In this document: in pieces, positions 1-22,626 of the stretch
Numbering within the stretch: position 1 is the stretch's first letter
Layout: every line of letters starts with the position of its first letter
IMG/VR virus record: IMGVR_UViG_2728369186_000002
DNA length: 23,460 nucleotides
Direction: 5' to 3' (one strand)
Origin: a virus
Taxonomy: Duplodnaviria; Heunggongvirae; Uroviricota; Caudoviricetes
Program-made: the position numbers and the translations under genes
Notes under the pieces: model-generated
The model's database searches: none
What the model was told of the DNA's origin: nothing
What the model saw: only the letters and a program-made list of their open reading frames with translations

Positions 1-482
1 CCCCACGCCAGAGACGTGTTGCTGTGGCGACCGTCATCACTTCCGGTCAGCACATCGTGCTTTTTCCCCTTGTTGTCAGTTACGCGGAGATAATCCCCGG
101 AGAAAGTCGACACACGGCTGTAAGCCACACCCGCCATCGCATACGCGCTGAACCATTCATTCACGCGCACAGACGGCCCCGCCATTACGCTGAACCAGCG
201 GTTACGAACGGAATCTTCATGCCAGCGGGTATCGCTGTAACGGGTAATCTGGCGATTCTTGTCTCCTGCATAGCTGAACGACGTCACCATCCCCAGTGTG
301 TCCGTAAACTCATAACGGTATTTCACGTTAATCCCGTTCAGATCATCACTGCCGGGAACGTTCGTCCGGGCATGAAGATACCCCGCGCTCAGCGTGGACT
401 GATGTTCAGACGCCCATGCAGGCGCACCGGATACGGCCAGACAAATGGCTGCGGACAAAATGGCGGCATAAAGTTTACGCAT
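1..482 (-). CDS. lom: Lom outer-membrane protein (Ail/Lom family), 3' end runs off window start
   Basis: Minus-strand ATG at 482..480 with GAGAGG Shine-Dalgarno upstream; translation begins [37 protein letters not shown]..., a signal peptide followed by beta-barrel sequence, near-identical to lambda Lom as recalled. The 173-aa plus-strand ORF 24..545 is its antisense shadow. Confidence 0.85.
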
Positions 483-504
483 AATTACCTCTCGCTTTTC
501 TGCA

Positions 505-530
505 ATAAAAAAGGCGTCATTTCTGACGCC
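505..530 (-). terminator. Rho-independent terminator downstream of J
   Basis: 7-bp stem ggcgtca (513-519) / tgacgcc (524-530) with loop tttc; on the minus strand the hairpin is followed by a U-run (plus-strand A-run 507-512). Sits 19 nt after the J stop. Confidence 0.6.
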
Positions 531-548
531 CGTTCTGGGTTATAAAAT

Positions 549-1719
<1,171 letters not shown>

Positions 1720-1729
1720 NNNNNNNNNN
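1720..1729. other. Assembly gap (10 N) with overlapping flanks
   Basis: Run of n; sequence left of the gap (about 1440-1719) recurs right of it (about 1800-2079) with substitutions. Confidence 0.95.
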
Positions 1730-2622
1730 GATTTCATTGCTGACATCCGTAATGGATGTCCTGATTTCAGCCAGGTCAGGCGCAAGCTGACCGTTATCAA
1801 TCTGCGTCCACAGCTCCTGAGCCAGATGGGTTTTCCCTATCTCGCCTTTGAAAAAATCCAGATAGCCTGATGCATCATCACTCGGCTGACCGACAGCCTC
1901 CACGAATGCCGATTTGCCAACGGTGTTCACACTGCGAACGTAAAAATAATAATTATGGCCCGGCCTGATATTGATACTGGCGGCTATCCAGTACAGCGCC
2001 GTGCCAAGATAGCGTGCTGTGGTTTCAACCTGCCTGATATCGGTAATCCGCGTTTCCGAGAACCAGAACTCAAACTGTACCGTCGGATCATAAACCGCAA
2101 GATGCGGCGTGGCGGTTATCTGAAAATAGCCCGGCGTCAGCTCAATCCGCGACGGCGCTGCCGGTGCGGCAATCCGGAACGATACCGATGCCGGATCGCC
2201 CTGCTGTCCCCACGCATTTACCGCCCGGACCGTCAGCGTGTAACGCCCCAGCGCCAGTTGCCTGAAGCGGTATGTGGTTTCCGTCGTCCGGGCCGTGCTG
2301 ACCAGCCGCTCACTGCCGTCATCCGCTGTTACGGTCAGACGGAGCAGGAAGCTCACGCCCTTCACCACCTTCGGCGTGTCCCAGCGCGCCAGCACCTGAT
2401 ACTCCCCGCTGTCTGCGGTGACTTCTGCGGTCAGGTGCTGCACCGCGGGCGGCGTGACGCCATTCACCGTGCCGCTCAGGTCGCCGTCAAAGTGCGCCCC
2501 GTTATCCACGATGGCTTCTTTTTCCGGTACATGCTGCACGGCGGTGATGGCATACGTGCCGCCGTCGTTCTCACGGATACTCACGCAGCGGAACAGGCGC
2601 TGGCGCAACGTCGGCAGCTTCA
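1730..2622 (-). CDS. J: J segment, a second allele: FN3-like repeat region plus start of a divergent C-terminal domain
   Basis: Part of the 768-aa ORF 1628..3934; encodes ...[46 protein letters not shown]... then [42 protein letters not shown], which diverges from the lambda-type sequence in 549..1719 after the shared FFKG motif. Confidence 0.75.
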
Positions 2623-2632
2623 NNNNNNNNNN
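2623..2632. other. Assembly gap (10 N) with overlapping flanks
   Basis: Run of n; about 430-520 bp on each side are near-identical (2100-2622 versus 2633-3062). Confidence 0.95.
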
Positions 2633-3941
2633 CGCCGGATCGCCCTGCTGCCCCCACGCATTTACTGCCCGGACTGTCAGCCTGTAGTTCCCCAGAGCCA
2701 GTTGTGTGAAGCGGTAAGTGGTTTCCGTCGTCCGGGCCGTGCTGACCAGCCGCTCACGGCCGTCATCCGCTGCCACGGTCAGGCGAAGCAGGAAGCTCAC
2801 GCCCTTCACCACCTTCGGCGTGTCCCAGCGGGCCAGCACCTGGTATTCCCCGCTGTCTGCGGTGACTTCTGCGGTCAGGTGCTGCACCGCTGGCGGCGTG
2901 ACACCATTTACCGTGCCGCTCTGGTCGCCGTCAAAGTGCGCCCCGTTATCCACGATGGCCTCTTTTTCCGGTACATGCTGCACGGCGGTGATGGCATACG
3001 TGCCGTCGTCGTTCTCACGGATACTCACGCAGCGGAACAGGCGCTGGCGCAACGTCGGCAGCTTCAGCCCCCACACGCTGTATTCAGCAACACCGTCAGG
3101 AACACGGCTCACTTTCACCTTCACGCCGTCGGTGACGGACTGAACCTCCACGCTGACCGGACTCCCCTGCCCGTCAACCAGGCTTATCAGCGTGGTGCCG
3201 GAAGATGGCAGCGTGATTTCACGGTCGAGCGTCAGCGTCCGGGTCTGGCTGTTTACCGCCAGCACGCGCCCGCCGGTGCTGATACCGGCATAGTCATCAT
3301 CGCAGATTTCAATGACATCGCCCGGTACATGGCGAAGCCCTTCTGCGCCGACGCTGAAATCCACGGTCTGCGTTTCCAGCAGTTCTGTTTTAATCAGCCA
3401 CAGCCCGGCGCGGTGTGCCTGCCCCCGACTGGTACAGCCAAAGGCATCCATCTTCGTGACGTTACGACCGTAACGGGCAATGGCCTGCGTGTCCTCCACA
3501 AGCTCTGTCGCCGTCTCCCAGCCGTTATCCGGGTCAATCCAGTTCACCTCAACGGCATTATGGCGGTCCTTCAGGGCGCTGAAGCTGTAGCGGAACGGCG
3601 CACCATCATCCGGCATCACCACATTACTGCGGTTATAGGTCCACACCTTATCCGACGGTCGGTCCTGCACGAACGTCAGCGTCTGCCCGTTCCATACCGG
3701 CATACAGCGCATCGCAGAGCAGAAATCACTGAGCACATCCCACGCCTTGCGCTGTGTGGTCAGGTACGCATTACAGGTGATGCGCGGCTCCGTGCCGCCA
3801 AAACCGTCCGGCACCGACTGATCGCAATGCTGGCCGATGACATACAGCGCCCATTTGTCCACATCCGCCGCACCAAGACGTTTCCCCATGCCGTAGCGCG
3901 GATGGGTCAGCATATCCCACAGACACCAGGCCATGTTGTTG
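2633..3941 (-). CDS. J: J segment, central domains
   Basis: Translation MAWCLWDMLTHPRYGMGKRLGAADVDKWALYVIGQHCDQSVPDGFGGTEPRITCNAYLTTQRKAWDVLSDFCSAMRCMPVWNGQTLTFVQDRPSD... matches the lambda J central region as recalled. Confidence 0.85.
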
Positions 3942-3951
3942 NNNNNNNNNN
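3942..3951. other. Assembly gap (10 N) with overlapping flanks
   Basis: Run of n; 3752-3941 is near-identical to 3952-4141 (peptide has H on one side, N on the other in ...YVIGQ[H/N]CDQ...). Confidence 0.95.
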
Positions 3952-4930
3952 GCGCTGTGTGGTCAGGTAGGCATTACAGGTGATGCGCGGCTCCGTGCCA
4001 CCAAAGCCATCCGGCACCGACTGGTCGCAATTCTGGCCGATGACATACAGCGCCCATTTGTCCACATCCGCCGCACCGAGACGCTTCCCCATGCCGTAGC
4101 GCGGATGGGTCAGCATATCCCACAGACACCAGGCCATGTTGTTGCTGTATGCTGGCTTAAACGTTCCGTCCCAGATACCGCTGTATTGCCGCGTCTGCGG
4201 GTTATAGTTCGACGGCACCTGCAGAATGCGCCCGCGAAGATGATAATTACGGCTCACCTGCTGGCTGCCGAACTGTTCCGAGTCCACCTGCACGCCGACC
4301 AGTGCCGTGTTCGGGTAGCACTGTTTCACATCGATGATTTCGGTGTATGACGACCAGAGCGTTTTGTTCTGCAGCTGGTCTGTGGTGCTGTCCGGCGTCA
4401 TCCTGCGCATCCGTATATTGAACGGGCGCGGCGGCAGGTTACCCACCACCACCGAGGCCAGATACTGCGAGGTGGTTTTGCCCTTAATGGTGATGTCTTT
4501 TTCCGTCACCCAGCCACCATTACGCTGTATCTGAACCAGCAGGCGAACTTCCGACGGATTCCGGTCCCCCTTTGAGGTGGTTTCCACCAGTGCCTGCACA
4601 CCGAAGGTAAAGCGCAGTCGGTCGATGTTTGCCGACGTGATGGCGCGGGTGATCGGCGTGTCGTATTTCACTTCCGTACCCAACACCGTCTCGGAGCCGG
4701 AGGATTCAAATCCCTCCGGCGGAGTCTGCTCCTGCTCACCAGCCCGGAACACCACCGTGACACCGGCGATGTTGGTATTCCCATCACTGTCCAGCACCGG
4801 CGTACTGTTCAGCAGCACGCTTTTTAATCCATCCATCGGACCTTCAATCGGCCCTTCACTGATGGCATCAATCACACTCAGCAACTGCGTGGACTTCAGG
4901 TTGTCCTTCGCTTCGCGCGGGGTATGCCCC
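3952..4930 (-). CDS. J: J segment, N-terminal region; first ~7 codons lie in the following gap
   Basis: Frame reads GHTPREAKDNLKSTQLLSVIDAISEGPIEGPMDGLKSVLLNSTPVLDSDGNTNIAGVTVVFRAGEQEQTPPEGFESSGSETVLGTEVKYD..., matching the lambda J N-terminus from residue ~8. Confidence 0.85.
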
Positions 4931-5092
4931 NNNNNNNNNNNNNNNNNNNNNNNNNNNNNNNNNNNNNNNNNNNNNNNNNNNNNNNNNNNNNNNNNNNNNN
5001 NNNNNNNNNNNNNNNNNNNNNNNNNNNNNNNNNNNNNNNNNNNNNNNNNNNNNNNNNNNNNNNNNNNNNNNNNNNNNNNNNNNNNNNNNNNN
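4931..5092. other. Assembly gap (162 N) hiding the J start and I 3' end
   Basis: Run of n between the I body and the J N-terminal region. Confidence 0.95.
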
Positions 5093-5660
5093 ACCCCACG
5101 CGCATTTCACCGTACAGAACAGGCAGAACATTGCCCTGGGCAACCATGTTATCCAGTGAAGAAAAATAGGTGTTCTGTTTGCCGTTATCCGTTGTCTGTG
5201 TGCGGGGGGTTTTGGGTTTAGGGGCCAGCATCTGTGCAACACCGCCAAGCGTCATACTGGCACCGAGAGAAAACAGCAGATTACTCGCCATAATTCCTAC
5301 CCCCGGCATCCATATAGCAACCGCCATAACAGCCGCCCCCAGCACAGCCTGAAACACACCGCCACTTTTGGCTCCCGCCAGACGCGGCACGATATGGATC
5401 ACAGCACCATTTGCCAGCGGTTCATTAAGACGGGCTGATAATTCCGTTTCACCTGTATCACGCCCGGCAATGCGTACCTGATACCAGCCGTCGCTCAGCT
5501 TCTGACGAAACGCCGGGATCTGCATGGCCAGCGCCCGGATGGCTTCGGCCCCCGTTTTCACACGCAGATCGATGCGGCGGCCAAATCGTTGTAAATCCCC
5601 GTAAAGGCAGATGCGCGCCATGCCCGGTGACGCCAGAGGGAGTGTGTGCGTCGCTGCCAT
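5093..5660 (-). CDS. I: Tail assembly protein I, 3' end lost in gap
   Basis: ATG at 5660..5658; MAATHTLPLASPGMARICLYGDLQRFGRRIDLRVKTGAEAIRALA...NGKQNTYFSSLDNMVAQGNVLPVLYGEMRVG, near-identical to lambda I as recalled. Confidence 0.85.
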
Positions 5661-6067
5661 TTGTCGGTATACCTCTCTCGTTTGCTCAGTTGTTCAGGAA
5701 TATGGTGCAGCAGCTCGCCGTCACCACAGTAAATGGCGGCATGATTCGGCACCGATGAACCAAAGCAGCACAGCAGCACATCGCCCGGTTGTGCTGATGA
5801 CAACGGCACCTGATACAGCCCTGTGGCCTCCAGATTATCCAGATAGAGATTCTGACCGTGACGCCACCAGTCATCCCCGCGATGAAAATCCGGCATCTCA
5901 ATTCCCGCCAGATGGTAAGCGTCCCGGAACAGCGTGTAACAGTCCGTCACCCCGTGCTCAAAGCGCCGCCCGGTGAGATGCGGCACACAGCGGAATTTAT
6001 GAATCGCCCCCCGGCAGACCAGCCACCACGGCAAATCACTCTGCACCTGCAGCCGCCGGTCGGCCTC
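5558..6067 (-). CDS. K: Tail assembly protein K (NlpC/P60-type), copy 1, 3' portion with stop
   Basis: ...EADRRLQVQSDLPWWLVCRGAIHKFRCVPHLTGRRFEHGVTDCYTLFRDAYHLAGIEMPDFHRGDDWWRHGQ...YNDLAAASICV with stop at 5558; matches the lambda K C-terminal half; overlaps the I start. Confidence 0.8.
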   Translation of the reverse strand, partial: EADRRLQVQSDLPWWLVCRGAIHKFRCVPHLTGRRFEHGVTDCYTLFRDAYHLAGIEMPDFHRGDDWWRHGQNLYLDNLEATGLYQVPLSSAQPGDVLLCCFGSSVPNHAAIYCGDGELLHHIPEQLSKRERYTDKWQRRTHSLWRHRAWRASAFTGIYNDLAAASICV

Positions 6068-6077
6068 NNNNNNNNNN
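6068..6077. other. Assembly gap (10 N) with overlapping flanks
   Basis: Run of n; 6078-6427 repeats 5718-6067 with substitutions. Confidence 0.95.
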
Positions 6078-6604
6078 CGTCGCCGCAGTAAATTGCGGCG
6101 TGATTCGGCACTGATGAACCAAAACAGCACAGCAGCACATCGCCCGGCTGTGCCGCTGACAACGGCACCTGATACAGCCCCGTCGCCTCCAGATTATCCA
6201 GATAGAGATTCTGGCCGTTACGCCACCAGTCATCCTCACGATAAAAGTCCGGCATCTCAATCCCCGCCAGATGATAAGCATCCCGGAACAGTGTGTAACA
6301 GTCCGTCACACCGTGCTCAAAGCGCCGCCCGGTGAGATGCGGCACACAGCGGAACTTATGAATCGTCCCCCGGCAGACCAGCCACCACGGCAAATCACTC
6401 TGCACCTGCAGCCGCCGGTCGGCCTCACTCAGCCAGGGCAGACCACCGGGGTGGCTGTGGACCAGCGCCACAATCTCTCCCTGCATTTCTGCACTCAGCC
6501 AGTCCTCCGGCGACATCCGGAAATACTCCTCCGGCTCACCGGATATATTCACGCAGGGAAAATATCTTTCCCCCTCCGGTGTTCTCACCACGAAGCCGCA
6601 CGAC
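6078..6604 (-). CDS. K: Tail assembly protein K, copy 2 (second allele), truncated at both ends by gaps
   Basis: ...SCGFVVRTPEGERYFPCVNISGEPEEYFRMSPEDWLSAEMQGEIVALVHSHPGGLPWLSEADRRLQVQSDLPWWLVCRGTIHKFRC...DFYREDDWWRNGQ...NHAAIYCGD; differs from copy 1 at several residues. Confidence 0.8.
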
Positions 6605-6708
6605 NNNNNNNNNNNNNNNNNNNNNNNNNNNNNNNNNNNNNNNNNNNNNNNNNNNNNNNNNNNNNNNNNNNNNNNNNNNNNNNNNNNNNNNNNNNNNNNN
6701 NNNNNNNN
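6605..6708. other. Assembly gap (104 N) hiding the L 3' end and K 5' end
   Basis: Run of n; the computed ORF 5947..7146 artificially fuses L and K across it. Confidence 0.95.
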
Positions 6709-7146
6709 CACCGCGCTCAGTTCACTGCACTGCTCGATGCGCCAGCGGCTGATCACCTCCTGCTCCGGATCGGCGTCACTGTTTCCGTTGACGAAGTTCA
6801 CCGCATCCAGAAAACGGGCGTAAACCTTACGCCGGACCACCGTTCCGCCGACCAGACTCTGCAGGTCTTCCGCCATCCCGGTGACCATGCCGTGCAGGTT
6901 AGAAACCGTCAGTGTCGGACGGGCAGCACTGCCCTTGCCATTCAGTTCAAATCCCGTCCCCTGAATGGGGTATGCCTGATACTGCCGCCCCTGCCAGGTA
7001 ACCGGCTCACCTTTTTCGTTCTGCTCATTACAGAAAAAATAACGTTCACCACCGACCTCTGTCAGATCGATTTCCCAGAGCACCACCTGGGCTGACTGAG
7101 TGAGGCGTGTCGTCTCATGATGTGTTTCCTGTGGAATATCCTGCAT
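6709..7146 (-). CDS. L: Minor tail protein L, N-terminal 146 aa (3' end in gap)
   Basis: ATG at 7146; MQDIPQETHHETTRLTQSAQVVLWEIDLTEVGGERYFFCNEQNEKGEPVTWQGRQYQAYPIQGTGFELNGKG..., near-identical to lambda L as recalled. Confidence 0.85.
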
Positions 7147-7155
7147 CAGAGCCTC

Positions 7156-7485
7156 CTATGCCACGACCTGTTCAAAATCTGCCGTTATGGTTATCCACAG
7201 CGCCCCCACGCTTGCCGACCATTTACGACAAACCACCCTGATCGGCTTCCAGTCATAAGGTGGCGTCCACTGAAATGCGCGGACGCCACCGTGCCGTTCC
7301 AGAAAGGCTTTTAAAGATGGGTGTTCACATTTACGAACACGTATCGTCACGCTGTAAATCGACAACTGGTTATTCAGTCCCGCCGCACGACGCTGTTCAT
7401 AACCATCGCCCAGCTTCACTGTCACCACTTTCGGCTCTGATACCACATTCATATCCGGGCGCACTTTCCAGTGAAACGTCTCCAT
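7156..7485 (-). CDS. M: Minor tail protein M
   Basis: 109 aa, METFHWKVRPDMNVVSEPKVVTVKLGDGYEQRRAAGLN...ADFEQVVA; same length and colinear with lambda M (MKTFRWKVKPGM...AEFEQVVN); start overlaps the H stop. Confidence 0.85.
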   Translation of the reverse strand: METFHWKVRPDMNVVSEPKVVTVKLGDGYEQRRAAGLNNQLSIYSVTIRVRKCEHPSLKAFLERHGGVRAFQWTPPYDWKPIRVVCRKWSASVGALWITITADFEQVVA

Positions 7486-10400
7486 TACCGATATGCTCCA
7501 CTTAACCGACCACCATCACGGGCCTGCTGTTGCATAAAGTCCGCTGCCGCTTTTTTCCCGAGGTCATAAACCACCTTCAGGGCAGCCGGACCTATCTGCC
7601 CGTTCGTGCCATCGTTATTGATCTCGATGTTGTACTGCGGGGCAAACATCGCCATACCTGAACCACCAATATCCGCCACAACCCCCAGCTTACCGTCAGC
7701 ACCACGACGCAGTGGCAGAATGGCTTCAGGTCCCGCTTCCCCCATCACACCCGCGCCTTTTGCAAAAGCAAAAAACGTCGGACGGTTAACCACCGTGCCA
7801 CTGTAACGACTCAAATCAGCAGACTGATAAATCCCCCCATTGGCATTCAGGGAAAGGCTGCTGAGATCAAATCCCAGTACACTGCCAATCCCTTTTATCG
7901 ATTTCATCATGGTTGCCTGCGCCAGGATTTTCGCCATATCTGACAGCACAGAAGAGGTGAAGGATTTGAAATTGAGTTTGCCGGTAGTGACAAAAGTTGC
8001 CAGGCCATTTCCCATGTTGCTGAAGGCTGACGAGAACACCTGTTCTGCTGTTCCTGCCGTATTATCTGCATCCACGGTAAAATCCTGAAATGCACGCAGG
8101 ACTCCGTTTTTCCAGTTACCCTGCACAACTTCAAGCTGTTGCCAGTAACGGCGATTCTCATTCAGTTGTCGGTTCAGGCTCTCCGTCAGCGCCTGCTCGG
8201 CCTTTCTGTAGTCATCCGTGTTATATGTTCCTTTCTGCTCACTATCCCGCCTCAACTGCTCCAGCTGTTGCTGGTATTTCTGGCGAAGACTCAGTTGTAC
8301 CTGATATCGCTGCCGCTGCTGATCACCCATACCCACAGTGGCGATATCCAGGTCATGTTGCTGACGCTGAGCGCGCTCTTCTTCAGCCAGTTGACTGGTC
8401 AGCTGAATTGTTTTTTTCTTCAGCTCGTTGAGTGCCGTCTGTTTCTGAAGCTCCTGCTGTTTTACATCCAGCAGCGTCAGTGCCTGAATCAGTTCATCTT
8501 TACGGGCCAGCACACTCTTTTCATCTGCCGTCAGTTTTTTCCCGTCCAGGTCGCTGATGCGCTGCTGCAGAGCCAGAAGCTGTTTATGCGCTTCTGTCAT
8601 CCTTTCCGTGGCAATGCCTGCTGACTGTCTGGCAGCAGCAATCTGTCCTTCCACCTGTGCCTGTTGCTGACTGTACTGCAGCAATAACCGGGTGGCCTCA
8701 TCATTACGGGGGTCGCGTGTTTTTTTCTTACCGGATGCCAGGGCTTTCTCGTAACGTTCATTTTCACGTTGTATCGCCGCATCCCTGACAGCCTGATCGG
8801 CGTACTGCATGGAATTAATACGCGCAATTTCACGCTGATGTCGTGCTGCTTCCGTTTCATTCATCCGGTTCAGTGCAGCATTTTCAGCATTACGGCGTTT
8901 CTGTTGCTCCTGATAATTCCGCTCTGCCTGCTCTTTTGCATCCTGCAAATCCTTCTGGCGTTTTTTCTCCTGAAGCTCGTTAAGACGCTGCTGATCGTAC
9001 TCAACCTGAGAAGATGATGCCGTCCAGGGGAGTCTTTTCGCCCGCGACACTTTCTCCTGTAAAGCGGAAATCTGTTCATCCAGCGAGTCTTCACGACCAA
9101 TATTCATGGCCGCATCCCAGAAACGACTCCATAAATCAGACAGATACTTCAGCGTACTGCCCAGCGCATTGAGGTTATTATCAATATCCGCAGTACGCCG
9201 ACCGGTTTCCTCTGCCAGTGCAGACATGGCTATCCGTGCCGCATCACTGGACCGCCCCTGTTCCCCAAGGACGCGTATCTGCTCAAGCTGAGTGGCAGTA
9301 AGAAAATGCAGCTCATTGTCCAGAGCCTTCGCGGCATTTACAGGATCATCCTTCAGCCGCTTAAACTGATTTATGGTATCGCTGACCGACTGGCCAACCG
9401 ATCGCTCCATCTGTGCGGCAGCTCTCGCCACCATACCGATATCGTTTCCACGAAATGCACCACTCCCCACCACCTGAGCCAGCGCACCGGCTGCAGCATG
9501 TTGCGTAATACCATTCCCGGAAATAGCACGACTGAGCGTCCACAGCTGCCCGGCAGTGACTCCGGCATAATGCCCCGTCAGCGACAACTGGCGGTTAAAT
9601 TCTTCCCCCTCCTTCTGACCATCATACCAGGCTTTACCCAGACCATAGACGGCCGCGGCAATACCGCCAATAACCCCGCCCAGCATCATGCCTTTCGGTG
9701 ACATCAGTGTGTCTATCCATCCGGCACGGTTAGCCAGCGTTATCCCGGATCCCCTCAGCGCACCTAAATTGCCGCGAGCCAGTTCACCTATCAGAACGCC
9801 TATCTCCTGGCGGGCCGCTGCACTTTTCAGACCCAGCGAATGCGTGGCTTTTCCTGCCTGCTCCATTTTGCGGATATACACTTCTGCAGCACTGCTTACC
9901 CCCAGCTGGGCAGCCTTAGCACGAAGCAACTCAGAAGAAGAAAGATTCTGGCGGGTTGCCTGCTCTTTAAGCTGACGGATAAACGCCACTTTCTGTCGGG
10001 TAGCCTCTGCCTCAGCCTGCGTAAGAACACCGGTTTTCGCCGTAACCTCAGAAATCAGCGCCAGATAATCCTGCTGACCAATCCCGCCACTGTTTCTGGC
10101 CTGTCGGATCTGCTGCTGAATACGCTGTAATTCCTGCAGTCCCGCACTGGCCTGTTTCACACTGTCAATCTGACGATAAAACGCGGCAGCCGCTTTATCC
10201 TGAGCCTCCGCCAGAGCCATGGCCTGCGCCTGTTCCTCGCGCATTTTCTGGCTCAGTGCCTCCATACGCTGGCGGGTTTGCTCCACCTCGCGGGCCATGC
10301 GTTCATGAGCCTGTGCGCTCTTCTCCACCGTCTGCGCATGGACGGATGCGGCTGTTGCAGCCGAAGAAGCCGCCTGCATTGTCTGCCGGGCGGCCTGAGT

Positions 10401-10550
10401 CTGACGCTCCATAAAACGCTGCATACGGGCAGAAGACCGTTCTGCATCGCTGGCTGCACCATTCAGAAGGTTTTTGATACGGGGAATTTCATTTTTAAAC
10501 TCTGCCGCATCAATCCCCAAATCAATGACCAGGTTGGCTATCTGGTCCAT
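7485..10550 (-). CDS. H: Tail length tape measure protein H
   Basis: About 1021 aa from MDQIANLVIDLGIDAAEF (the track ORF starts 10 codons earlier at 10580); long coiled-coil-rich body; C-terminus ...INNDGTNGQIGPAALKVVYDLGKKAAADFMQQQARDGGRLSGAYR matches the lambda H C-terminus. Confidence 0.9.
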   Translation of the reverse strand: MDQIANLVIDLGIDAAEFKNEIPRIKNLLNGAASDAERSSARMQRFMERQTQAARQTMQAASSAATAASVHAQTVEKSAQAHERMAREVEQTRQRMEALSQKMREEQAQAMALAEAQDKAAAAFYRQIDSVKQASAGLQELQRIQQQIRQARNSGGIGQQDYLALISEVTAKTGVLTQAEAEATRQKVAFIRQLKEQATRQNLSSSELLRAKAAQLGVSSAAEVYIRKMEQAGKATHSLGLKSAAARQEIGVLIGELARGNLGALRGSGITLANRAGWIDTLMSPKGMMLGGVIGGIAAAVYGLGKAWYDGQKEGEEFNRQLSLTGHYAGVTAGQLWTLSRAISGNGITQHAAAGALAQVVGSGAFRGNDIGMVARAAAQMERSVGQSVSDTINQFKRLKDDPVNAAKALDNELHFLTATQLEQIRVLGEQGRSSDAARIAMSALAEETGRRTADIDNNLNALGSTLKYLSDLWSRFWDAAMNIGREDSLDEQISALQEKVSRAKRLPWTASSSQVEYDQQRLNELQEKKRQKDLQDAKEQAERNYQEQQKRRNAENAALNRMNETEAARHQREIARINSMQYADQAVRDAAIQRENERYEKALASGKKKTRDPRNDEATRLLLQYSQQQAQVEGQIAAARQSAGIATERMTEAHKQLLALQQRISDLDGKKLTADEKSVLARKDELIQALTLLDVKQQELQKQTALNELKKKTIQLTSQLAEEERAQRQQHDLDIATVGMGDQQRQRYQVQLSLRQKYQQQLEQLRRDSEQKGTYNTDDYRKAEQALTESLNRQLNENRRYWQQLEVVQGNWKNGVLRAFQDFTVDADNTAGTAEQVFSSAFSNMGNGLATFVTTGKLNFKSFTSSVLSDMAKILAQATMMKSIKGIGSVLGFDLSSLSLNANGGIYQSADLSRYSGTVVNRPTFFAFAKGAGVMGEAGPEAILPLRRGADGKLGVVADIGGSGMAMFAPQYNIEINNDGTNGQIGPAALKVVYDLGKKAAADFMQQQARDGGRLSGAYR

Positions 10551-11249
10551 AACGCACACCTCCGGAAATACCTTCCCCAAGATGCATCAGTTCTTCGTCC
10601 GTTCGCTCCGGTATCCCGTTCTCTTCCGGTAAAAGGCTGAAATCAGCCACCGCAGCATCACTGCTACCGGACACCATTCTCACGATCAATGCCTTCAGCG
10701 AGGCAAACTGCGCATCCATCCACACATCACTGAAGCTATGCATCTGGAAATAATCGCCCCATTCACCAAGCTCAGTGGCCGACATTTCCGACAGCATCCG
10801 CCGCCAGTCTGCCCGCCGGAACTCCCGGGCAAGCCGCATGACAAACTGCATTTCCCGCGTCAGGACTTTTCCGGCGTCAGCACCTCATGCTCCAAATCCC
10901 CGGCATTCTCAATGGCTCCCATACCGCTCAGCGACAGAACCATCTCCGCCCCCGCTCCTAGGGCATCATACGACCATGTTGTAATAACGGATGCGCAAAG
11001 CGTCTCAACATCCTGAGACTGTTCCGCATTCCACAGTGAGCGGGAAACCAGCCAGGCATTGATATCCATCCCCATCCGCAGAAAAGCAATCTGTCGTTCA
11101 GCCTCCGGCAGTTCTCCCTCTTCGGCATCAAACTTTGCCGTTCGCTGCTGAACAAACGCCAGATATTCAATTCTCTGCAGCCCGGACAGCTCACTGAGCA
11201 CCACGGACTGCTTTTCATAATTAAACGAGCCCTGTTTCAGAAACATCAT
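10522..11249 (-). CDS. T: Tail assembly chaperone GT, made by programmed -1 frameshift from G into T
   Basis: The T frame (MQFVMRLAREFRRADWRRML...) is the -1 frame relative to G and is open only from 10884 downward. The G 3' end carries heptamer GGAAAAG (plus coordinates 10866..10872), positioned like the lambda G-T slippery site GGGAAAG. Confidence 0.7.
10860..11249 (-). CDS. G: Tail assembly chaperone G
   Basis: MMFLKQGSFNYEKQSVVLSELSGLQRIEYLAFVQQRTAKFD..., colinear with lambda G (MFLKTESFEHNGVTVTLSELSALQRIEHLAL...); GGTGGAG Shine-Dalgarno upstream; start could be the second ATG at 11246. Confidence 0.85.
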   Translation of the reverse strand: MMFLKQGSFNYEKQSVVLSELSGLQRIEYLAFVQQRTAKFDAEEGELPEAERQIAFLRMGMDINAWLVSRSLWNAEQSQDVETLCASVITTWSYDALGAGAEMVLSLSGMGAIENAGDLEHEVLTPEKS

Positions 11250-11306
11250 GTTCTCCACCTGCAAAAAAGCCCCGGATAACCGGGGCAAATGATGAGTATC
11301 GTCCTG

Positions 11307-12056
11307 TTAACCTGCGGCGCTGACAGCCACCGCAGCCACGGCCACAAAATCGCCGTCAGAAGTCATGCCCACAATGCTGACACTGCCCTGCTTCACGCCT
11401 TTCACCGTGGCCACAAGCCCGTTCAGGGTCACCGTGGCAGTCTGTGGATCTGTCGAATGCACACTGATCGCTTTGTCACTGGCTCCGTCAGGTTTTACTG
11501 TAAAGGTCAGCGTGGTGGTTGCTCCCACTTTTACACTGGCAGATGCCGGTGCCACCGTCAGCCCGGTAACGCTCACTGTTTCAGTGCCTTCCTCTGCCAG
11601 ATGCGGACGCCCCACACCGCTGATTTTCACTGTGCGGGTCATCACGTCTTTTGAGGCAATGGTTTTACCCAGTGAGCTCAGCCAGCCACGGAAAACATCA
11701 ACAGTGCCGTTGGGATATTTGATACGAAACGCGCAGACTTCACCGGAGTCGAACAACTGAACCAGTTTTTTCTGCCCGCTGTCACCCGGACGCCAGGCCA
11801 GCGTCGCCGAAGTATCACCGACGGATTTCTGCCCCTGGGTTGTCGTTTTCCAGTCTGCATCTTCATCATCGAGATAAGTGTCATCTTCTGCATCAGCGGT
11901 CATTTCGCCAGGTTGCAGATCCTTCACCATCGCAAGACGCAGCCAGTCAGTGTCCGATAAAGGGTTCGCAAACGCATCGCCCTTGCCGGTGTACATCCAG
12001 AACGTCGTTCCCGCACCTTTCGTTTTTGCCAGTGGATTTGGTGTGGTCATTGCCAC
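11307..12056 (-). CDS. V: Major tail protein V with C-terminal Ig-like domain
   Basis: 249 aa; ...KTKGAGTTFWMYTGKGDAFANPLSDTDWLRLAMVKDLQPGEMTADAEDDTYLDDEDADWKTTTQGQKS...NGTVDVFRGW... matches lambda V; T/V/S-rich C-terminal Ig-like domain. Confidence 0.9.
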   Translation of the reverse strand: MAMTTPNPLAKTKGAGTTFWMYTGKGDAFANPLSDTDWLRLAMVKDLQPGEMTADAEDDTYLDDEDADWKTTTQGQKSVGDTSATLAWRPGDSGQKKLVQLFDSGEVCAFRIKYPNGTVDVFRGWLSSLGKTIASKDVMTRTVKISGVGRPHLAEEGTETVSVTGLTVAPASASVKVGATTTLTFTVKPDGASDKAISVHSTDPQTATVTLNGLVATVKGVKQGSVSIVGMTSDGDFVAVAAVAVSAAG

Positions 12057-12061
12057 CTCCT

Positions 12062-12463
12062 TTAATTCGTGTACGTGATCTGGTATGTGATTTCCGCCAT
12101 CGCCCAGGTGGCCATCTCATTATCACGTTGATAGTTAAAACCGAGAGGGATCAGGGTGTCGATGAGTCCGGAAAGTGCCGGTATATCATTCAGAGCCGGG
12201 AAAATGGTGCTCTCCATCCACATATCCAGCTCTGAATCCGGTGCCTGTGCCCGGATGAAGACAGCAATATGCAGAACAGCCTGCCAGTCATCTTCATCCG
12301 TCATTTTTCCGGTGTACTGAGCATCACTCAGCCACACCGCCACGGCAGGCAGTTCCTGCGCATCAATAAATGCCGGAAGCCCGTCAAAAAACGTGGCGCT
12401 GTCTTCACACTGTTCCCGAAGGCGTGCCAGTACGGCCTGGCGGATTTGTGTATGTCGGTTCAT
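12062..12463 (-). CDS. U: Tail terminator protein U
   Basis: MNRHTQIRQAVLARLREQCEDSATFFDGLPAFIDAQELPAVAVWLSDAQYTG...ITYQITYTN, colinear with lambda U. ATG at 12463 overlaps the Z stop as ATGA; an upstream in-frame ATG at 12475 is the alternative start. Confidence 0.85.
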   Translation of the reverse strand: MNRHTQIRQAVLARLREQCEDSATFFDGLPAFIDAQELPAVAVWLSDAQYTGKMTDEDDWQAVLHIAVFIRAQAPDSELDMWMESTIFPALNDIPALSGLIDTLIPLGFNYQRDNEMATWAMAEITYQITYTN

Positions 12464-13038
12464 CGGGTCAGCCATAACCTCAGTTGTTGTTTCAGTGCAT
12501 ACCCCAGCTGTTTCGGCATTTCCGCAGCAATAATGCGGTCGCGGGCATCTTCAAATGCCTGTGTCAGCGGTCCGGACAGCGGGACTTTCACCACATCAAT
12601 GGGGTAACGATTTTTGCCATCAATACGCCGCATCACATGCCAGCGACCATTCGCCAGTTGCTGAATAAACGCATCCCGGAAAAGATATTTACCCACCTTC
12701 AGCACACTGCCACGGTACTGCAGTTTTCCACCACGCCGGGCCAGTCTGACCCGGGCTGTCCCCAGCTTAATAGCGGGCAGATTGCCCCGGTTAACGCGGA
12801 TCCTGGCCGTCATTTTTCCTGACGGACTGGCTTTAAACACCCGGACACGCTGACGTACCAGTTTCAGGGGGATCCCTTTCACCTGGTTATCTCCCGCAAC
12901 GGTATTCCCGGCAACCTGCCGGGTGGCGACCGAGACCGCTTTCTGTGCCACACGGTTTATCGCCCATGCGCTGGCCTGTGGCACCATACGGGTATCAAGG
13001 CTGTTCAGATTACGGATGGCATTCTCAAGCCCCTTCAT
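12460..13038 (-). CDS. Z: Tail completion protein Z
   Basis: 192 aa, MKGLENAIRNLNSLDTRMVPQASAWAINRVAQ...FIQQLANGRWHVMRRIDGKNRYPIDVVKVPLSGPLTQAF...LGYALKQQLRLWLTR; same length and colinear with lambda Z. Confidence 0.85.
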   Translation of the reverse strand: MKGLENAIRNLNSLDTRMVPQASAWAINRVAQKAVSVATRQVAGNTVAGDNQVKGIPLKLVRQRVRVFKASPSGKMTARIRVNRGNLPAIKLGTARVRLARRGGKLQYRGSVLKVGKYLFRDAFIQQLANGRWHVMRRIDGKNRYPIDVVKVPLSGPLTQAFEDARDRIIAAEMPKQLGYALKQQLRLWLTR

Positions 13039-13049
13039 CCCACACCTCT

Positions 13050-13325
13050 TTACTCAATAAAGATCATTGGCTTACCGTTAAAACGTTCATGCCGTGTGAC
13101 CGTCCATTGTTGTCCGTCATAAACAACGCGATCCCCGCGCCGTGGGCGGTATCCCGAAGAAAACACCACCAGAGAGACCGCAGGTCCGGACAGAGCATTC
13201 AGCTCTGCCAGTGTTTCTCCCGGGATCACAGTCATATCGGCATCATTAATCGAGGCTGTCTTTCCCATCTTTCTGACCGTGATCGCATCCATATGCGCTG
13301 CCAGCCGGGAAAAGGGATCAGACAT
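13050..13325 (-). CDS. Head-tail joining protein, FII-like
   Basis: 91 aa, sits immediately upstream of Z as FII does in lambda; ...RRGDRVVYDGQQWTV... resembles the FII RRGDTLTIGEENFWV motif region. Assignment is by position and weak similarity. Confidence 0.55.
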   Translation of the reverse strand: MSDPFSRLAAHMDAITVRKMGKTASINDADMTVIPGETLAELNALSGPAVSLVVFSSGYRPRRGDRVVYDGQQWTVTRHERFNGKPMIFIE

Positions 13326-13641
13326 TGAGTTTTACCGGCACTTCTTCTGCACTGGTTCCGGCATCTGCCCAGACAACCCCGACCAGCGGATCAGAGCCGC
13401 TGTTAGTCAGCTGAACTTTTCCGGACTTCAGATAAACCTTCTTACCCGTTTTCATGTCATCCGTTTTCAGCTTAGGCAGCATAAACACACCTTCGGTCAT
13501 GCCGTCGCCTGTTTCACCCTGTGGAATATCGGTCAGCGCCACCGCAAAAACATCACCCACCTGCACCAGATCTCCGCTGCTGATGGCTGCACTGGCAACA
13601 ATCGCCACCGTTTTTCCTTCTTCTACAAAATTCTTTGCCAT
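13318..13641 (-). CDS. Small head-associated protein (possibly DUF2190-type decoration or completion protein)
   Basis: 107 aa from MAKNFVEEGKTVAIVASAAISSGDLVQVGDVFAVALTDIPQGETGDGMTEGVFMLPK...; GGAGA Shine-Dalgarno 6 nt upstream of ATG 13641; lies between capsid and FII-like genes. Family assignment is from memory and uncertain. Confidence 0.5.
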   Translation of the reverse strand: MAKNFVEEGKTVAIVASAAISSGDLVQVGDVFAVALTDIPQGETGDGMTEGVFMLPKLKTDDMKTGKKVYLKSGKVQLTNSGSDPLVGVVWADAGTSAEEVPVKLNV

Positions 13642-13684
13642 AACTGTCTCCGCACAGCCCCGTTCAGGGGCTGATTTCAGGTAC

Positions 13685-13704
13685 AAAAAAAGCCCTTACG
13701 GGCC
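13685..13704 (-). terminator. Candidate intrinsic terminator or attenuator after the capsid gene
   Basis: Minus strand GGCCC-GUAA-GGGCU hairpin (GNRA loop) followed by a U7 run (plus-strand A-run 13685-13691), 24 nt after the capsid stop. A second 7-bp stem (13655-13673) lies just before the next gene's Shine-Dalgarno. Confidence 0.5.
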
Positions 13705-13727
13705 ATCAGAGTTGTTGTCTGCGACGT

Positions 13728-15686
13728 TTACGCCGTACATTTCACCAGACCGCGGTGATCAACTGGCGCGACACCGGCGTCAATACGCACTTTCGTTGTC
13801 ACGCCATCCACACTGAAGCCCTCCATCTGATCAATATATGGCGTATCCACACCGTTGAGATAAGCCACTTCAATCGTATCGGAGCCTTTTGACGCAGCCA
13901 GGTAGAAGGTGGTCTGGCTGTTATCATCAAGACGAGGCTCTGCAATAACGGTCGCAAAATCTTTCACCGGGTTAATAATACCGGCGTTAATGTCAGCCCC
14001 CTTGACACTTGAGGAGCGAATGACCTGGTTAGCAACAGACTCCATCGCCGTCGGTACCAGTACGAACGCAGGACGAATATTCAGATGACGCTCCCCCTCT
14101 TTCTGAACGCGCATCAACTGGCGGGCTTTATCCAGCGATGCCACGTCCATTGCAGCGCTCTCCAGTACGTTTGCATGTTTCGCTTTATCGAACAGACTTA
14201 CATTATCTGTGGAGATTTTCGGGTTAGACGTCAGAATGGCATAAACCAGATCGGCAATAGTGGATTTCGCCGCACGGCCCAGTTTCATCGGGACATCGGT
14301 CAGCATATTCAGATCATCATTGATAATGGCCTGACGGGTGATACTGAACAGCTCGCCATAGGTCGCCAGTGCAATAGTGGCCTGTTTATCTCCGGTGGTG
14401 ACGTATTTATATTCCGCCCCTTCACGCACCTGACGCAGAGCACTGAAGCCCCCCATACCCACACGATGGGCAATTTTAAAATCAGACAACTGACCTTTCC
14501 GCGTCCACTGTTCATAGGTTTCAGGAGCATCTTCCCAGCCCTGCAGAATGGCTTTGTTCGCAACATCCAGCAGAATATTACCGAAGTCAGACGTACTGTG
14601 TGTGAACGCCGCACCGACCATCTGCATCGGGTTATAACTGGAAACCCCAATACCCCGTTCAGTCAGTGACATACGGGCATATTCACGCAGGGTCATCCCG
14701 TTGTAGACATTATCACGTTCGGTTTTTTCAAATCCGGCACGCGCCATCAGCGCCTGGCGGATCCCGTCCCCCACAAAATTACCGTTACCGGCATAAATAT
14801 GAGCCGGTGTATTTTTATTGGATGGCGTGGACTCGCGCCCCATCTCGTTCAACAGCTTTTCGCGGGCCTGCTCCAGCGAACATTCAGGATCGGCAAGACA
14901 CTGAGCCTGCAGCGTCTGATAACGCCCGCCAAACATGGCAAACAGATCATTAATACCGTTTACACGCGCTTTTTGCTCTGCCAGTACCTGCGCACGGATA
15001 CTGTTTTCATCCACCACGGGTGCTGCTGCCTGCACTGGCGTCCGGGAGGCTGCAGGTTCATCATCCTGTACGCGTGGAGCACTGTTGCGTGGCGGAGTAA
15101 TCATGTTTCGAATGGATTCCGGCATCTTTTTAAATTCCTCTGTACGTTTTGACTGAATACATGCCATTGCCTTAACGGCTGGCGTCACCTGATCAGCAAA
15201 TCCATGTGCCAGACATTCGGCACCGGACATCCAGGTCTCATCCGCCAGCATGGCAGCAATTTCATCGGTGGTTTTCCCGGTTTTCTGTGCATAAGCGGGT
15301 AACAGAACCGCCTCAACCTTATCGAGCAGGTCGGCATAGGTGCGCATGTCCTCCGCATCACCGCCCGTAAAGCCAAATGGTTTATGAATCATCATGAAGG
15401 TGTTTTCCGGCATAATGACCGGGTTTCCCACCATCGCAATGACCGACGCCATTGACGCCGCCACACCGTCGACATAAACGGTAATGGACGCACCATGTGT
15501 TTTCAGTGCATTAAAAATGGCGATGCCTTCAAAGACATCGCCACCCGGTGAATTGATATGGAGATTAATGTGGGTGATATCGCCCAGTGCATTCAGATCA
15601 CTGATAAACTGCTTCGCTGTAACACCCCAGAAACCAATCTCGTCATAAATATAAATATCCGCGTCACTCTGGTGACCAGCCTGCAT
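13728..15686 (-). CDS. Head maturation protease (ClpP/S14-like) fused to major capsid protein
   Basis: One continuous frame; N-terminal part has ClpP-like sequence (...INSPGGDVFEGIAIFNALKTHGASITVYVDGVAASMASVIAMVG...MIHKP...), C-terminal ~300 aa look like an HK97-fold major capsid protein, and no separate capsid gene follows. Start taken as ATG 15686 (MQAGHQSDADIYIYDEIGFWGV), 14 nt after the portal stop; the track ORF extends to 15947 inside the portal gene. Confidence 0.7.
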   Translation of the reverse strand: MQAGHQSDADIYIYDEIGFWGVTAKQFISDLNALGDITHINLHINSPGGDVFEGIAIFNALKTHGASITVYVDGVAASMASVIAMVGNPVIMPENTFMMIHKPFGFTGGDAEDMRTYADLLDKVEAVLLPAYAQKTGKTTDEIAAMLADETWMSGAECLAHGFADQVTPAVKAMACIQSKRTEEFKKMPESIRNMITPPRNSAPRVQDDEPAASRTPVQAAAPVVDENSIRAQVLAEQKARVNGINDLFAMFGGRYQTLQAQCLADPECSLEQAREKLLNEMGRESTPSNKNTPAHIYAGNGNFVGDGIRQALMARAGFEKTERDNVYNGMTLREYARMSLTERGIGVSSYNPMQMVGAAFTHSTSDFGNILLDVANKAILQGWEDAPETYEQWTRKGQLSDFKIAHRVGMGGFSALRQVREGAEYKYVTTGDKQATIALATYGELFSITRQAIINDDLNMLTDVPMKLGRAAKSTIADLVYAILTSNPKISTDNVSLFDKAKHANVLESAAMDVASLDKARQLMRVQKEGERHLNIRPAFVLVPTAMESVANQVIRSSSVKGADINAGIINPVKDFATVIAEPRLDDNSQTTFYLAASKGSDTIEVAYLNGVDTPYIDQMEGFSVDGVTTKVRIDAGVAPVDHRGLVKCTA

Positions 15687-15699
15687 CCTGAACCAGGAA

Positions 15700-17208
15700 T
15701 TATTCTTCGGACTGGTCGTCGGTGTGCTGCGGCTCCTGTCGTTTCGTTGCGGCACTGCTGCCTCCTTTATCACTGGCCGGATCGGTATCAAATACCAGAT
15801 CCAGCGTGCGGTTTTCATCAATTTCGGCCTTGCGCCGACGTTTGACATCATCCGGATTACGACCACCTGCACGTACCCAGTCTGATTCTGTCGCTGCTCC
15901 ACCACGAATCTGAATTTTCCAGGCCTCAGCCTCCTTAACAGGGTCAATCCACGGCATCACCGGTCCGGAATACACCGCGGTATACAGTGAAGAACGGTCA
16001 AGATCGCGGGGTAGCCTGATAACACCGGATGCCACAGCCTGTTTCAGCCAGGCACGATACATCGGGCGGGTGACGGCACCAATAAACCAGTCCTGCAGGA
16101 TCAGGTAGCCATCAGTGGATTCAACCAGCTCCTGACGCTGGGCGCTGTAAGTGCCGTTATAGTTGCGTGCCGTACTGGAAAAACTCAGACGACTGCCCGC
16201 CGCCACGGCACGCAACTGACCATTACGAAAAGTTTCAAGGTTAGGATTGGGACGATCCGACTTCACCATTCCGATTTCTTCGCCGGGTTTCAGATCGTCG
16301 TAAATAATGCCTGGCTGAATGGTAAGCTCGCGTTCCTTATCCTTGCTGCCATTACCATCCGGTTCATAGCTCTGCCCGTCGCCTTTCCGGATGTACATCC
16401 CCAGAGCAGCGGCGATCCTTGCTGCAGTCAGCTCAGAATCTTCATACTCTTTCAGGGCACTGAGGCGGATCAGCACACCGGACAACAAAGACGTCCCGCG
16501 CATCTGGTGCAGACGGCGAACAAATTTAAGATGCAGCATTCGCTCTGCATCCACTTCTTTGGTTTCCATCTGCCGTCCGGATACGGGACGACTTTTATAC
16601 ACCAGATATTTTTCGGGACGCCCCCAGTCATCAACAAACACGCCCTGATTCAGCCTGTTGCTCTCATCACTGGTCATGGGAATAAAGTCCGGCTCGAGTG
16701 CCTCCAGCCAGAAATGAACACCGGCAGAAGGCGTCAGGCTGTTTATGCGCCCGGAAACCATCTGGACAAACACCTCACCATCGCGCAGCCAGGTACGCAG
16801 CATCAGACGTTCCAGCATCGGACGGGTAAACTGCCCGGTGACTTCCGGGCTGACAGACCATTCACTCCATCGGGTGCGAATCTCCGCAGCCAGGTCACGG
16901 GCAATGGCCCCATTGCGTAATACCGGATGTGGCTCGACAATAATCCCGTTTTTCCCCACCACCCGTTCTTCCAGCTTGTCAAATACACCAATGACCAGAT
17001 CGTGGTTGTTATCAAGGTAACGGGCCTGCTCACGTAACGACACGGCCCCGTACTGGCTTAACTGGTCGGCAGTTCGGTTTTCCCGCCGGGCTTTGTGTGT
17101 CCGCGTCGTTTTTACGGCCTCATAAGCCTGGATCACCGCACGGGAACGCAGCCTTGCCGCTTTCCATCCTGGTGAAAAAACGCCAATCACATCATCAAGA
17201 ATTGCCAT
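15700..17208 (-). CDS. Portal protein
   Basis: About 502 aa from MAILDDVIGVFSPGWKAARLRSRAVIQAYEA...; position between W and the protease/capsid gene; start ATG overlaps the W stop (TGATG). Not closely similar to lambda B by eye. Confidence 0.75.
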   Translation of the reverse strand: MAILDDVIGVFSPGWKAARLRSRAVIQAYEAVKTTRTHKARRENRTADQLSQYGAVSLREQARYLDNNHDLVIGVFDKLEERVVGKNGIIVEPHPVLRNGAIARDLAAEIRTRWSEWSVSPEVTGQFTRPMLERLMLRTWLRDGEVFVQMVSGRINSLTPSAGVHFWLEALEPDFIPMTSDESNRLNQGVFVDDWGRPEKYLVYKSRPVSGRQMETKEVDAERMLHLKFVRRLHQMRGTSLLSGVLIRLSALKEYEDSELTAARIAAALGMYIRKGDGQSYEPDGNGSKDKERELTIQPGIIYDDLKPGEEIGMVKSDRPNPNLETFRNGQLRAVAAGSRLSFSSTARNYNGTYSAQRQELVESTDGYLILQDWFIGAVTRPMYRAWLKQAVASGVIRLPRDLDRSSLYTAVYSGPVMPWIDPVKEAEAWKIQIRGGAATESDWVRAGGRNPDDVKRRRKAEIDENRTLDLVFDTDPASDKGGSSAATKRQEPQHTDDQSEE

Positions 17209-17420
17209 CAGAACCTCGCCAGCCGGTACCCGGGATGCCCCCGTCGTCGTGTAATCAGAGCCGCAAGGCGGCGCTCCCACTCCTGCCGCCCCTGCCGGAT
17301 CTCAGATAAGTTTTCCATGGTCATCTGCTGACCATTAAAGGTGACGGATTTTCCGTCCAGCACCGCCATTTCAGCTTCCGTATAACGCTGAATCATGGCT
17401 TCGATATCATTCTGGTTCAT
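17208..17420 (-). CDS. W: Head-tail joining protein W (gpW-like)
   Basis: 70 aa, MNQNDIEAMIQRYTEAEMAVLDGKSVTFNGQQMTMENLSEIRQGRQEWERRLAALITRRRGHPGYRLARF; size and C-terminal RRRG motif like lambda W; GGAGG Shine-Dalgarno; ATG overlaps the terminase stop. Confidence 0.75.
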   Translation of the reverse strand: MNQNDIEAMIQRYTEAEMAVLDGKSVTFNGQQMTMENLSEIRQGRQEWERRLAALITRRRGHPGYRLARF

Positions 17421-19519: not shown

Positions 19520-20013
19520 TACTCCTCCCGCTGTAATTCCTCCTCATCATCCGCACCTGCTTCGGTCACCCGCAGGGCTATCTGATCGCGCAGATCATCA
19601 ATAATGGACTGAACACGGCTCACAGCGGCAGGGTGCAGACCGCAGTCACGTTCAAGAATATCCGGTAATGTCTCCAGCACCTGCACGACCGCTTTTGCCC
19701 AGATGGCAAACTCCCGTCTGACATCACTGGCCGGAATGAGTTGTGCCGTTTCCTGTTCGAACTTAAGACGCTCACGTTCAGACTGATACCAGGCTTTGCG
19801 CTCATGCGCGTCCATTTCGCCTTCTGCAACCGGCGGTGGTAATGCCAGAAATGCCGACACAATATCAACCACCCGATAAAGCTTGAGGTTGCTTTCATGC
19901 CCCCCTGCAACGGGTAGATTTTGCAGCCTTGCCGCAGCAGTCTGGCGATGTACACCTGACAGAGCCGCCAGTTGACTGATATTCAGCGTCAGATTTTTTA
20001 ACTCTCGATCCAT
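19519..20013 (-). CDS. Terminase small subunit (Nu1-like, N-terminal HTH)
   Basis: 164 aa, MDRELKNLTLNISQLAALSGVHRQTAAARLQN... (HTH) with acidic C-terminus; immediately upstream of and overlapping the large subunit start; ~175 bp downstream of cosN as Nu1 is in lambda. Confidence 0.8.
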   Translation of the reverse strand: MDRELKNLTLNISQLAALSGVHRQTAAARLQNLPVAGGHESNLKLYRVVDIVSAFLALPPPVAEGEMDAHERKAWYQSERERLKFEQETAQLIPASDVRREFAIWAKAVVQVLETLPDILERDCGLHPAAVSRVQSIIDDLRDQIALRVTEAGADDEEELQREE

Positions 20014-20125
20014 ACCCGCTCCAGAATGTTTTAAACATGCATCTTGCGAACAACTTTAGGCAAACGGTGTTAGTGATGAACAAAAAACAATCAAAATCGA
20101 CACCACAAAAATAAAACCACTGTAA

Positions 20126-20138
20126 TATCAATACATTA
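20126..20138 (+). promoter_or_regulatory. IHF consensus site within cosB, centred in an 8-bp inverted repeat
   Basis: TATCAATACATTA fits WATCAANNNNTTR; flanked by inverted repeat ACTGTAAT (20119-20126) / ATTACAGT (20135-20142); lies between cosN and the terminase small-subunit gene like the lambda I1 site. Confidence 0.4.
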
Positions 20139-20187
20139 CAGTAGTGGTGATGACGAATGAAATTTCAAAAACTAGCCTTTTTCCGCG

Positions 20188-20199
20188 ACGCTCCCGCCC
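20188..20199 (-). other. cosN (cohesive end site), variant of the lambda 12-nt core
   Basis: Minus strand reads ACGGGGCGGGAGCGTCGCGG against lambda ACGGGGCGGCGACCTCGCGGG: 16 of 20 identical, differences confined to the centre of the 12-mer (GGGCGGGAGCGT versus GGGCGGCGACCT). Confidence 0.65.
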
Positions 20200-20513: not shown

Positions 20514-20542
20514 TTCATACAGTTATATGATAAATATATTAT
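20514..20542 (+). promoter_or_regulatory. Candidate sigma70 promoter for the cargo gene
   Basis: TTCATA (20514-20519), 17-bp spacer, TATTAT (20537-20542) in a very AT-rich tract about 45 nt upstream of ATG 20585; several alternative -10/-35 pairs exist. Confidence 0.25.
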
Positions 20543-22612: not shown

Positions 22613-22626
22613 AGAGAGGATTGTTT

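Follow-up and report, generated by a model that had tools for sequence, protein, structure and literature searches.

The J region of this DNA is best read as a scaffold in which contigs of two different prophages are interleaved, and the stretch that had looked like a divergent receptor-binding tip is instead the start of the long-shaft form of J that is native to the main, type-A prophage; we give this reading a probability of about 0.88. The window, by which we mean the whole 23,460-nucleotide stretch that was analysed, carries on its minus strand the late region of a lambdoid prophage: lysis, terminase, portal, a protease–capsid fusion, tail, tape measure, M, L, K, I, J and lom. A first-pass annotation had proposed that two distinct J alleles from at least two lambdoid prophages are present, and complete genomes bear this out, as the pieces of the scaffold match different prophage types. 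It had also placed the difference between the alleles in a C-terminal receptor-binding domain (RBD, PF12421). That placement fails: the divergent residues, 821–858, fall in the alpha-helical shaft, about 170 residues upstream of the RBD.

Six runs of N (1720–1729, 2623–2632, 3942–3951, 4931–5092, 6068–6077 and 6605–6708) cut the L-to-lom end of the window into six short pieces of 527–1719 bp, which lie beside one 16.7-kb piece. All are read on the minus strand. The first piece holds the left-hand copy of J (549–1718), which encodes residues 744–1132 and the stop codon of a lambda-like prophage (type B), including a short, lambda-type shaft at about 1365–1523 and a tip of the OmpC-binding A8 type at about 552–1058. 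The gene for the Ail/Lom outer-membrane protein, lom (1–482), follows 3′ of this type-B J and is truncated by the window edge; it was identified by translation and from the annotation of the identical stretch in strain 1585m1. A 173-amino-acid open reading frame at 24–545 on the plus strand, present in the mechanical list of open reading frames, is antisense to lom and almost certainly spurious. The flagged second piece (1730–2622) covers J residues 562–858, that is, Ig-like/FNIII domains 1 and 2 and the beginning of the shaft. It is followed by J residues ~270–705 (2633–3941), J residues ~8–333 (3952–4930), the tail assembly genes I and K (5093–6067), a part of K (6078–6604) and the large piece (6709–23460) with the lysis, terminase, portal, protease–capsid fusion, tail tube, tape measure, M and L genes, whose names we took from the annotation of A19. 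The window pieces and every reference locus share the order H-M-L-K-I-J-lom, which fits the placement of gpJ.

Two types of prophage account for these pieces. Type A is the kind found at ydfJ in A29, A19, ECC-1470 and PS3T, with a J of 1159 amino acids, and type B is the lambda-like kind found in the att-lambda region of strain 1585m1, beside ybhB/bio, with a J of 1132 amino acids. The large, fifth, fourth and second pieces are 99.5–100% identical to type-A genomes, and the first, third and sixth are 100, 99.2 and 97.9% identical to 1585m1; against the other type, identity is 1–20 points lower. The large piece matches the ydfJ-site prophages of ECC-1470, PS3T, A19 and A29 at 99.8–100% over its 16.7 kb. 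The fifth piece matches A29, A19 and PS3T at 99.9–100% against 85% for 1585m1, the fourth matches A19 and PS3T at 99.5–99.6% against 96.6% for 1585m1, and the flagged piece matches gpJ of A29 at 99.7%, the A19 and PS3T genes at 96.2% and the lambda-like J of 1585m1 at 92.9%. On the other side, the first piece is identical over 1719 bp to 1585m1 and many complete genomes and only about 80% identical to type-A loci, the third reaches 99.2% to 1585m1 against 95.6–96.3% to type-A relatives, and the sixth 97.9% against 95.4%. The type-A J of the window is itself a mosaic of its relatives, as the fourth piece, closest to A19 and PS3T, is 96.6% identical to A29, the genome to which the flagged piece is closest.

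The first and second pieces both span J residues 744–858 with different sequences, so they cannot be parts of one gene copy. Complete genomes show to which prophage each belongs. In 1585m1, the counterparts of the third and first pieces lie 113 bp apart within a single J gene of 1132 codons. A29 carries just one locus of this kind, and in it the prophage that matches the large piece (99.8%) leads directly into the J that matches the flagged piece (99.7%). This continuity makes the flagged allele the native J of the main prophage of the window, and the left-hand copy, which had been called lambda-type, the outsider. The imperfect matches of the third and sixth pieces to 1585m1 (99.2 and 97.9%) indicate that the true type-B prophage is a relative of the 1585m1 element and not the same element. 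Inside these two pieces we found no switch between types A and B; the positions at which they differ from the references are either scattered or in clusters, as is usual for mosaics.

The two prophages do not have the near-identical tails that the first-pass annotation had assumed. Beyond L-K-I-J, the lambda-like prophage locus aligns with the large piece at just two places, both weakly (919 bp at 74.6% identity and 1137 bp at 65.8%). The annotations also show head genes of different kinds: in the head module at 13728–15947 (minus strand), a ClpP-like prohead protease forms a fusion with the major capsid protein, unlike the lambda-type C/D/E genes of the type-B reference. With head modules of different types, the L-K-I-J tail-tip genes are the sole part that the two prophages have in common.

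Several features of the type-A prophage can be recorded here. In A19, ECC-1470 and PS3T it adjoins a truncated ydfJ and carries essD, ydfR-family and rrrQ lysis genes. In K-12 the ydfJ site is that of the Qin cryptic prophage, and the prophage that occupies it here has a late region that appears complete. An insertion sequence breaks the prophage in two genomes where it is otherwise 100% identical, ISEc52 in ECC-1470 and a member of the IS66 family in PS3T; the copies in the window and in A19 are unbroken. Between the lysis and terminase genes, at 20585–21277 on the plus strand, lies an open reading frame of 230 amino acids, annotated in the identical A19 prophage as hypothetical protein WP_023567552.1, with a moron-like placement and orientation.

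The contig ends suggest how the interleaving came about. The 10-N gap at 1720–1729 joins contigs of two different prophages whose flanks overlap and do not abut, and the overlaps at the four 10-N gaps measure 270 bp (88.5% identity), 433 bp (94.2%), 193 bp (95.9%) and 349 bp (93.1%). The high-coordinate contig ends, at 1719, 2622, 3941 and 6067, each lie exactly 60 nt past the last mismatch to the overlapping neighbour (four of four), and no exact run as long as 60 nt occurs inside the overlaps in the three that were examined. We infer from these ends the signature of a k-mer graph with k − 1 = 60. Given two J genes about 93–100% identical over their first ~760 codons, a k-mer short-read assembler would have broken each copy wherever 60 nt or more were exactly the same in the other; a scaffolder would then have lined up the allele-specific fragments, with gaps of a minimal 10 N between them. 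Between the first and third pieces, 113 bp of type B are absent; with 1585m1 as a proxy, they differ by 1 nt from the type-A copy kept in the flagged piece, a near-identity that fits a shared graph node retained once. Short-read assemblies are known to break inside lambdoid prophages (PMC7175801).

Some ends and gaps behave differently. The low-coordinate ends of the right-hand contigs do not obey the 60-nt rule; the corresponding distance there is 4–18 nt. The end of the flagged piece at 1730 lies inside type-A-specific sequence that has no counterpart in the window, so a bubble between two alleles does not explain this break; a drop in coverage or a third, long-shaft copy of J may. We also considered reference-guided scaffolding by comparing the long N-runs with true distances: the run of 162 N fits its 154 bp, and the run of 104 N does not fit its 322 bp, so agreement with true distances is rough at best.

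The alleles could also come from two strains, each with one prophage, if the sample was mixed, contaminated or metagenomic. Nothing in the window ties both prophages to one chromosome, as it contains no flanking host DNA. The linkage made by the scaffolder suggests read pairs across shared sequence, although a mixture would allow that too. Against separate strains stands the finding that several J-bearing prophages per genome are the norm. Sequence like the flagged piece occurs at a median of 2 places per genome, and at up to 13. Among 5,426 complete E. coli genomes, 3,559 carry the long shaft cassette of the flagged allele, described below (7,147 places), which 67 deposited phage genomes also have; the lambda-type short cassette is in 2,632 of the complete genomes, fewer than the long form, and by inclusion–exclusion at least 765 have both. 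We therefore regard an origin from two strains as unlikely and infer that both prophages sit in one genome.

The interleaved reading leaves the question of what the flagged piece encodes. Its minus strand is a stop-free open frame of 297 codons, and the two peptides that the first-pass annotation had quoted from either side of the gap are encoded there exactly as given. The motif FFKG corresponds to J residues 817–820 in both alleles. Translation and alignment to the J proteins of lambda, 1585m1, A29 and PhiR70_1 assign the divergent stretch, at 1730–1843 on the minus strand, to residues E821–I858 of the long-shaft allele, where an alpha-helical shaft begins that is 28 residues longer. The two copies had been described as sharing their sequence up to FFKG and diverging completely thereafter, and neither half of this description is accurate. 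Over the 270 bp of overlap nucleotide identity is 88.5%, with a drop to 80–93% that begins at about residue 761, and after FFKG the next ~16 residues are still partly alike (HL..EL...D) before the longer allele gains its insertion of 28 residues. The proposal that FFKG marks a recombination breakpoint is right in that the motif lies at a domain boundary (Ig_J_second ends at 818), but the breakpoint is not sharp, since identity decays from about residue 761. The contig end at 1730 falls within the insertion, which leaves the window without sequence past it for comparison; the alleles of full-length relatives realign from ...MWAVK..., with 32 residues that are 100% identical at the protein level.

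Domain boundaries place this stretch more precisely. The Pfam scan was run on the full-length J of A29, which is 99.7% identical in nucleotides to the flagged contig over residues 562–858, and not on the window fragment itself. It returned two consecutive Ig-like/FNIII domains of gpJ, Ig_J (PF24421, 610–714, 1.3e-42) and Ig_J_second (PF24489, 716–818, 5.2e-39), followed by the tail-tip fibre domain Phage_Tail_Tip (PF09327, 872–1000) and the RBD (PF12421, 1029–1159). The last two lie at 845–972 and 1001–1132 in J of lambda. Both PF09327 and PF12421 are present in all four closest type-A relatives, and the type-A contig of the window stops at residue 858, before either. The alpha-helical shaft of lambda gpJ comprises residues 809–861 and forms a three-helix bundle that clamps the FNIII-2 units; after LamB binding it remodels and frees the FNIII domains, and the tube opens (PMC11101478). 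Taken with the Pfam bounds, these residue numbers put the flagged stretch in the shaft, directly after FNIII-2. By this assignment, the segment would encode the start of a longer shaft, a three-helix bundle beneath FNIII-2 of the trimeric tail-tip protein.

In the alignment, the insertion of 28 residues maps after about lambda residue 835/836, a position that is uncertain by several residues in this zone of low identity. By a crude measure, the hydrophobic periodicity of the insertion peaks at 100 degrees, against 105 degrees for the lambda shaft and 165 degrees for FNIII-2. This hints that the extra residues may be helical; the insertion also contains glycine and proline (NGQLAPD), which might break a helix.

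Along the whole of J, nucleotide identity between the alleles is 97–100% up to codon 760, 80–100% over codons 761–820, 33–67% over 821–940, 80–97% over 951–1030 and 47–87% over 1031–1140, and through the shaft and upper fibre the long and short alleles share 7–53% of their amino acids. J contains two separately exchangeable variable cassettes, one of shaft and upper beta-prism fibre (~761–950) and one of the tip (from ~1030), with a near-invariant block between them. The flagged difference is part of the shaft and upper-fibre cassette and by itself does not set the receptor.

What sets the receptor has been established with chimeras of lambda gpJ. Natural C-terminal portions fused at residue 964 sufficed by themselves to make OmpC the receptor in place of LamB (Brodel et al. 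2024, PMC11338833). The A8 chimera works on OmpC of both MG1655 and EDL933, and delivers DNA through OmpC in a lamB-deleted host, and the 1A2 chimera works on EDL933 OmpC only (PMC11338833). The fusion point at 964 falls within the conserved joint. Judged by this standard, the statement that only one of the two J copies is lambda-type misleads: the shaft of the left-hand copy is lambda-type, but its tip shares 30–50% of amino acids with that of lambda and is of the A8 type. No nucleotide match of this copy to lambda was found below window position 991. The tip of the left-hand copy is therefore predicted to bind OmpC. For the type-A prophage, the tip of the four closest relatives agrees with 1A2 at 149 of the 165 codons that can be read, in a frameshift-tolerant alignment to a supplement sequence damaged by optical character recognition. 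The missing tip of the window's type-A J would thus be of the 1A2-like, OmpC-binding kind (...GKAFPRDSRAPERWPSG...AGHGHMTLEFSVSAW...), as in all four of these relatives, and the two J proteins of the window are likely to have different tips.

These results bear on the proposal that a divergent receptor-binding module, one that determines host range, begins with the flagged segment and was recombined in at FFKG, so that the receptors of the two phages would differ through this segment. The second Ig-like domain does end at FFKG (818), J is mosaic there, and the tip of the four closest type-A relatives is 40–63% identical in amino acids to that of the left-hand copy. The RBD, however, begins about 170–200 residues further on, and the alleles return to 100% identity between shaft and tip. 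PhiR70_1 joins the long shaft to exactly the tip type of the left-hand copy, the receptor switch was obtained by exchanging residues from 964 onward alone (PMC11338833), and both tip types match OmpC-binding chimeras. We consider this proposal very improbable. The segment taken as the RBD itself is contradicted outright, as residues 821–858 compare with a PF12421 domain that starts at 1029 in the long allele or 1001 in lambda.

Taken literally, the scaffold shows J segments repeated in direct order, which a single J locus with real tandem partial duplications would also produce. Four successive duplications would, however, require a perfect alternation of two known prophage types and ends that fall 60 nt past the last mismatch, the N-runs mark unresolved joins, and the J genes of seven complete genomes or phages are single intact open reading frames of 1132–1160 amino acids; such a locus is hardly credible. 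Equally hard to credit is an artefact by which sequencing error or a frameshift altered one and the same allele, which the first-pass annotation had named as the outcome that would undo its claim: we found no nucleotide similarity of 1730–1806 to the rest of the window, and the 893-bp piece, divergent end included, aligns without gaps, and with 3 mismatches (99.7%), to the intact, annotated gpJ of E. coli A29, a gene that runs on in frame for another 301 codons.

The feature is thus an already known and very common allele that an assembly artefact has exposed. Of complete E. coli genomes, 4,454 contain the whole flagged contig at full length, as do 181 phage records, and the long-shaft J also occurs in Stx2-converting phages, cdtI and mEp460, which are cultured, plaque-forming or inducible phages. 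In annotations, such genes routinely appear under the names gpJ or host specificity protein J. The mosaicism of lambdoid J genes, and the exchangeability of the tip independently of the rest, were already established and are illustrated here again. As a by-product, the comparison yields a map of two variable J cassettes with a conserved joint, a joint that has already been used to engineer OmpC-targeting lambda particles. The main lesson is one of caution: anyone who took the window at face value would see a J with unusual internal repeats, or else a new host-range module, and gene calls, domain annotations and predictions of host range that span positions 1–6700 would all be chimeric.

A more speculative possibility, to which we give little weight, is that the dimorphism in shaft length (short, or longer by 28 residues, which is four heptads) constitutes a functional module in its own right. 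It is raised by the role of the shaft as the element that unwinds to pass receptor binding on to tail opening. If it were true, the two deeply diverged shaft and upper-fibre cassettes (33–67% nucleotide identity), which are maintained at high frequency and shuffled independently of the tips, might tune the sensitivity of the trigger or how far the tip reaches through O-antigen or capsule.

Among known systems, the closest to the flagged allele is gpJ at the ydfJ site of A29 (WP_201479582.1, 1159 amino acids), which resembles the flagged contig at 99.7% of nucleotides, with mismatches at 1868, 1874 and 1892, and stands behind the same upstream prophage (99.8–100% over 16.7 kb); A19, ECC-1470 and PS3T have near-identical J genes. 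Lambda gpJ (P03749, 1132 amino acids; PDB 8IYK, 8XCI and 8XCJ) has the same order of hub, FNIII-A, two Ig-like/FNIII domains, alpha-helical shaft, beta-prism fibre and Ig-like RBD, and is mostly 93–100% identical in amino acids to the flagged allele family over the first ~750 residues. It differs in a shaft that is 28 residues shorter and in a tip that binds LamB, whereas the tips linked to the window alleles are OmpC types. The gpJ of A8 (PDB 9wca/9wcb; ‘A8 gpJ 713’) is identical to the left-hand copy from residue 964 to the end, bar one substitution (N/S); A8 is an engineered fusion on a lambda backbone, whereas the left-hand copy is a natural prophage gene. The J of PhiR70_1 (XSB43583.1, 1160 amino acids) has a long shaft cassette that is 100% identical in amino acids to that of A29 over residues 811–930, and pairs it with an A8-type tip, whereas the closest relatives of the window pair the long shaft with a 1A2-like tip. 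Lambda thus combines the short shaft with a LamB tip, 1585m1 the short shaft with an A8 tip, PhiR70_1 the long shaft with an A8 tip and A29 the long shaft with a 1A2-like tip, and the different pairings in PhiR70_1 and A29 show that shaft and tip cassettes assort independently.
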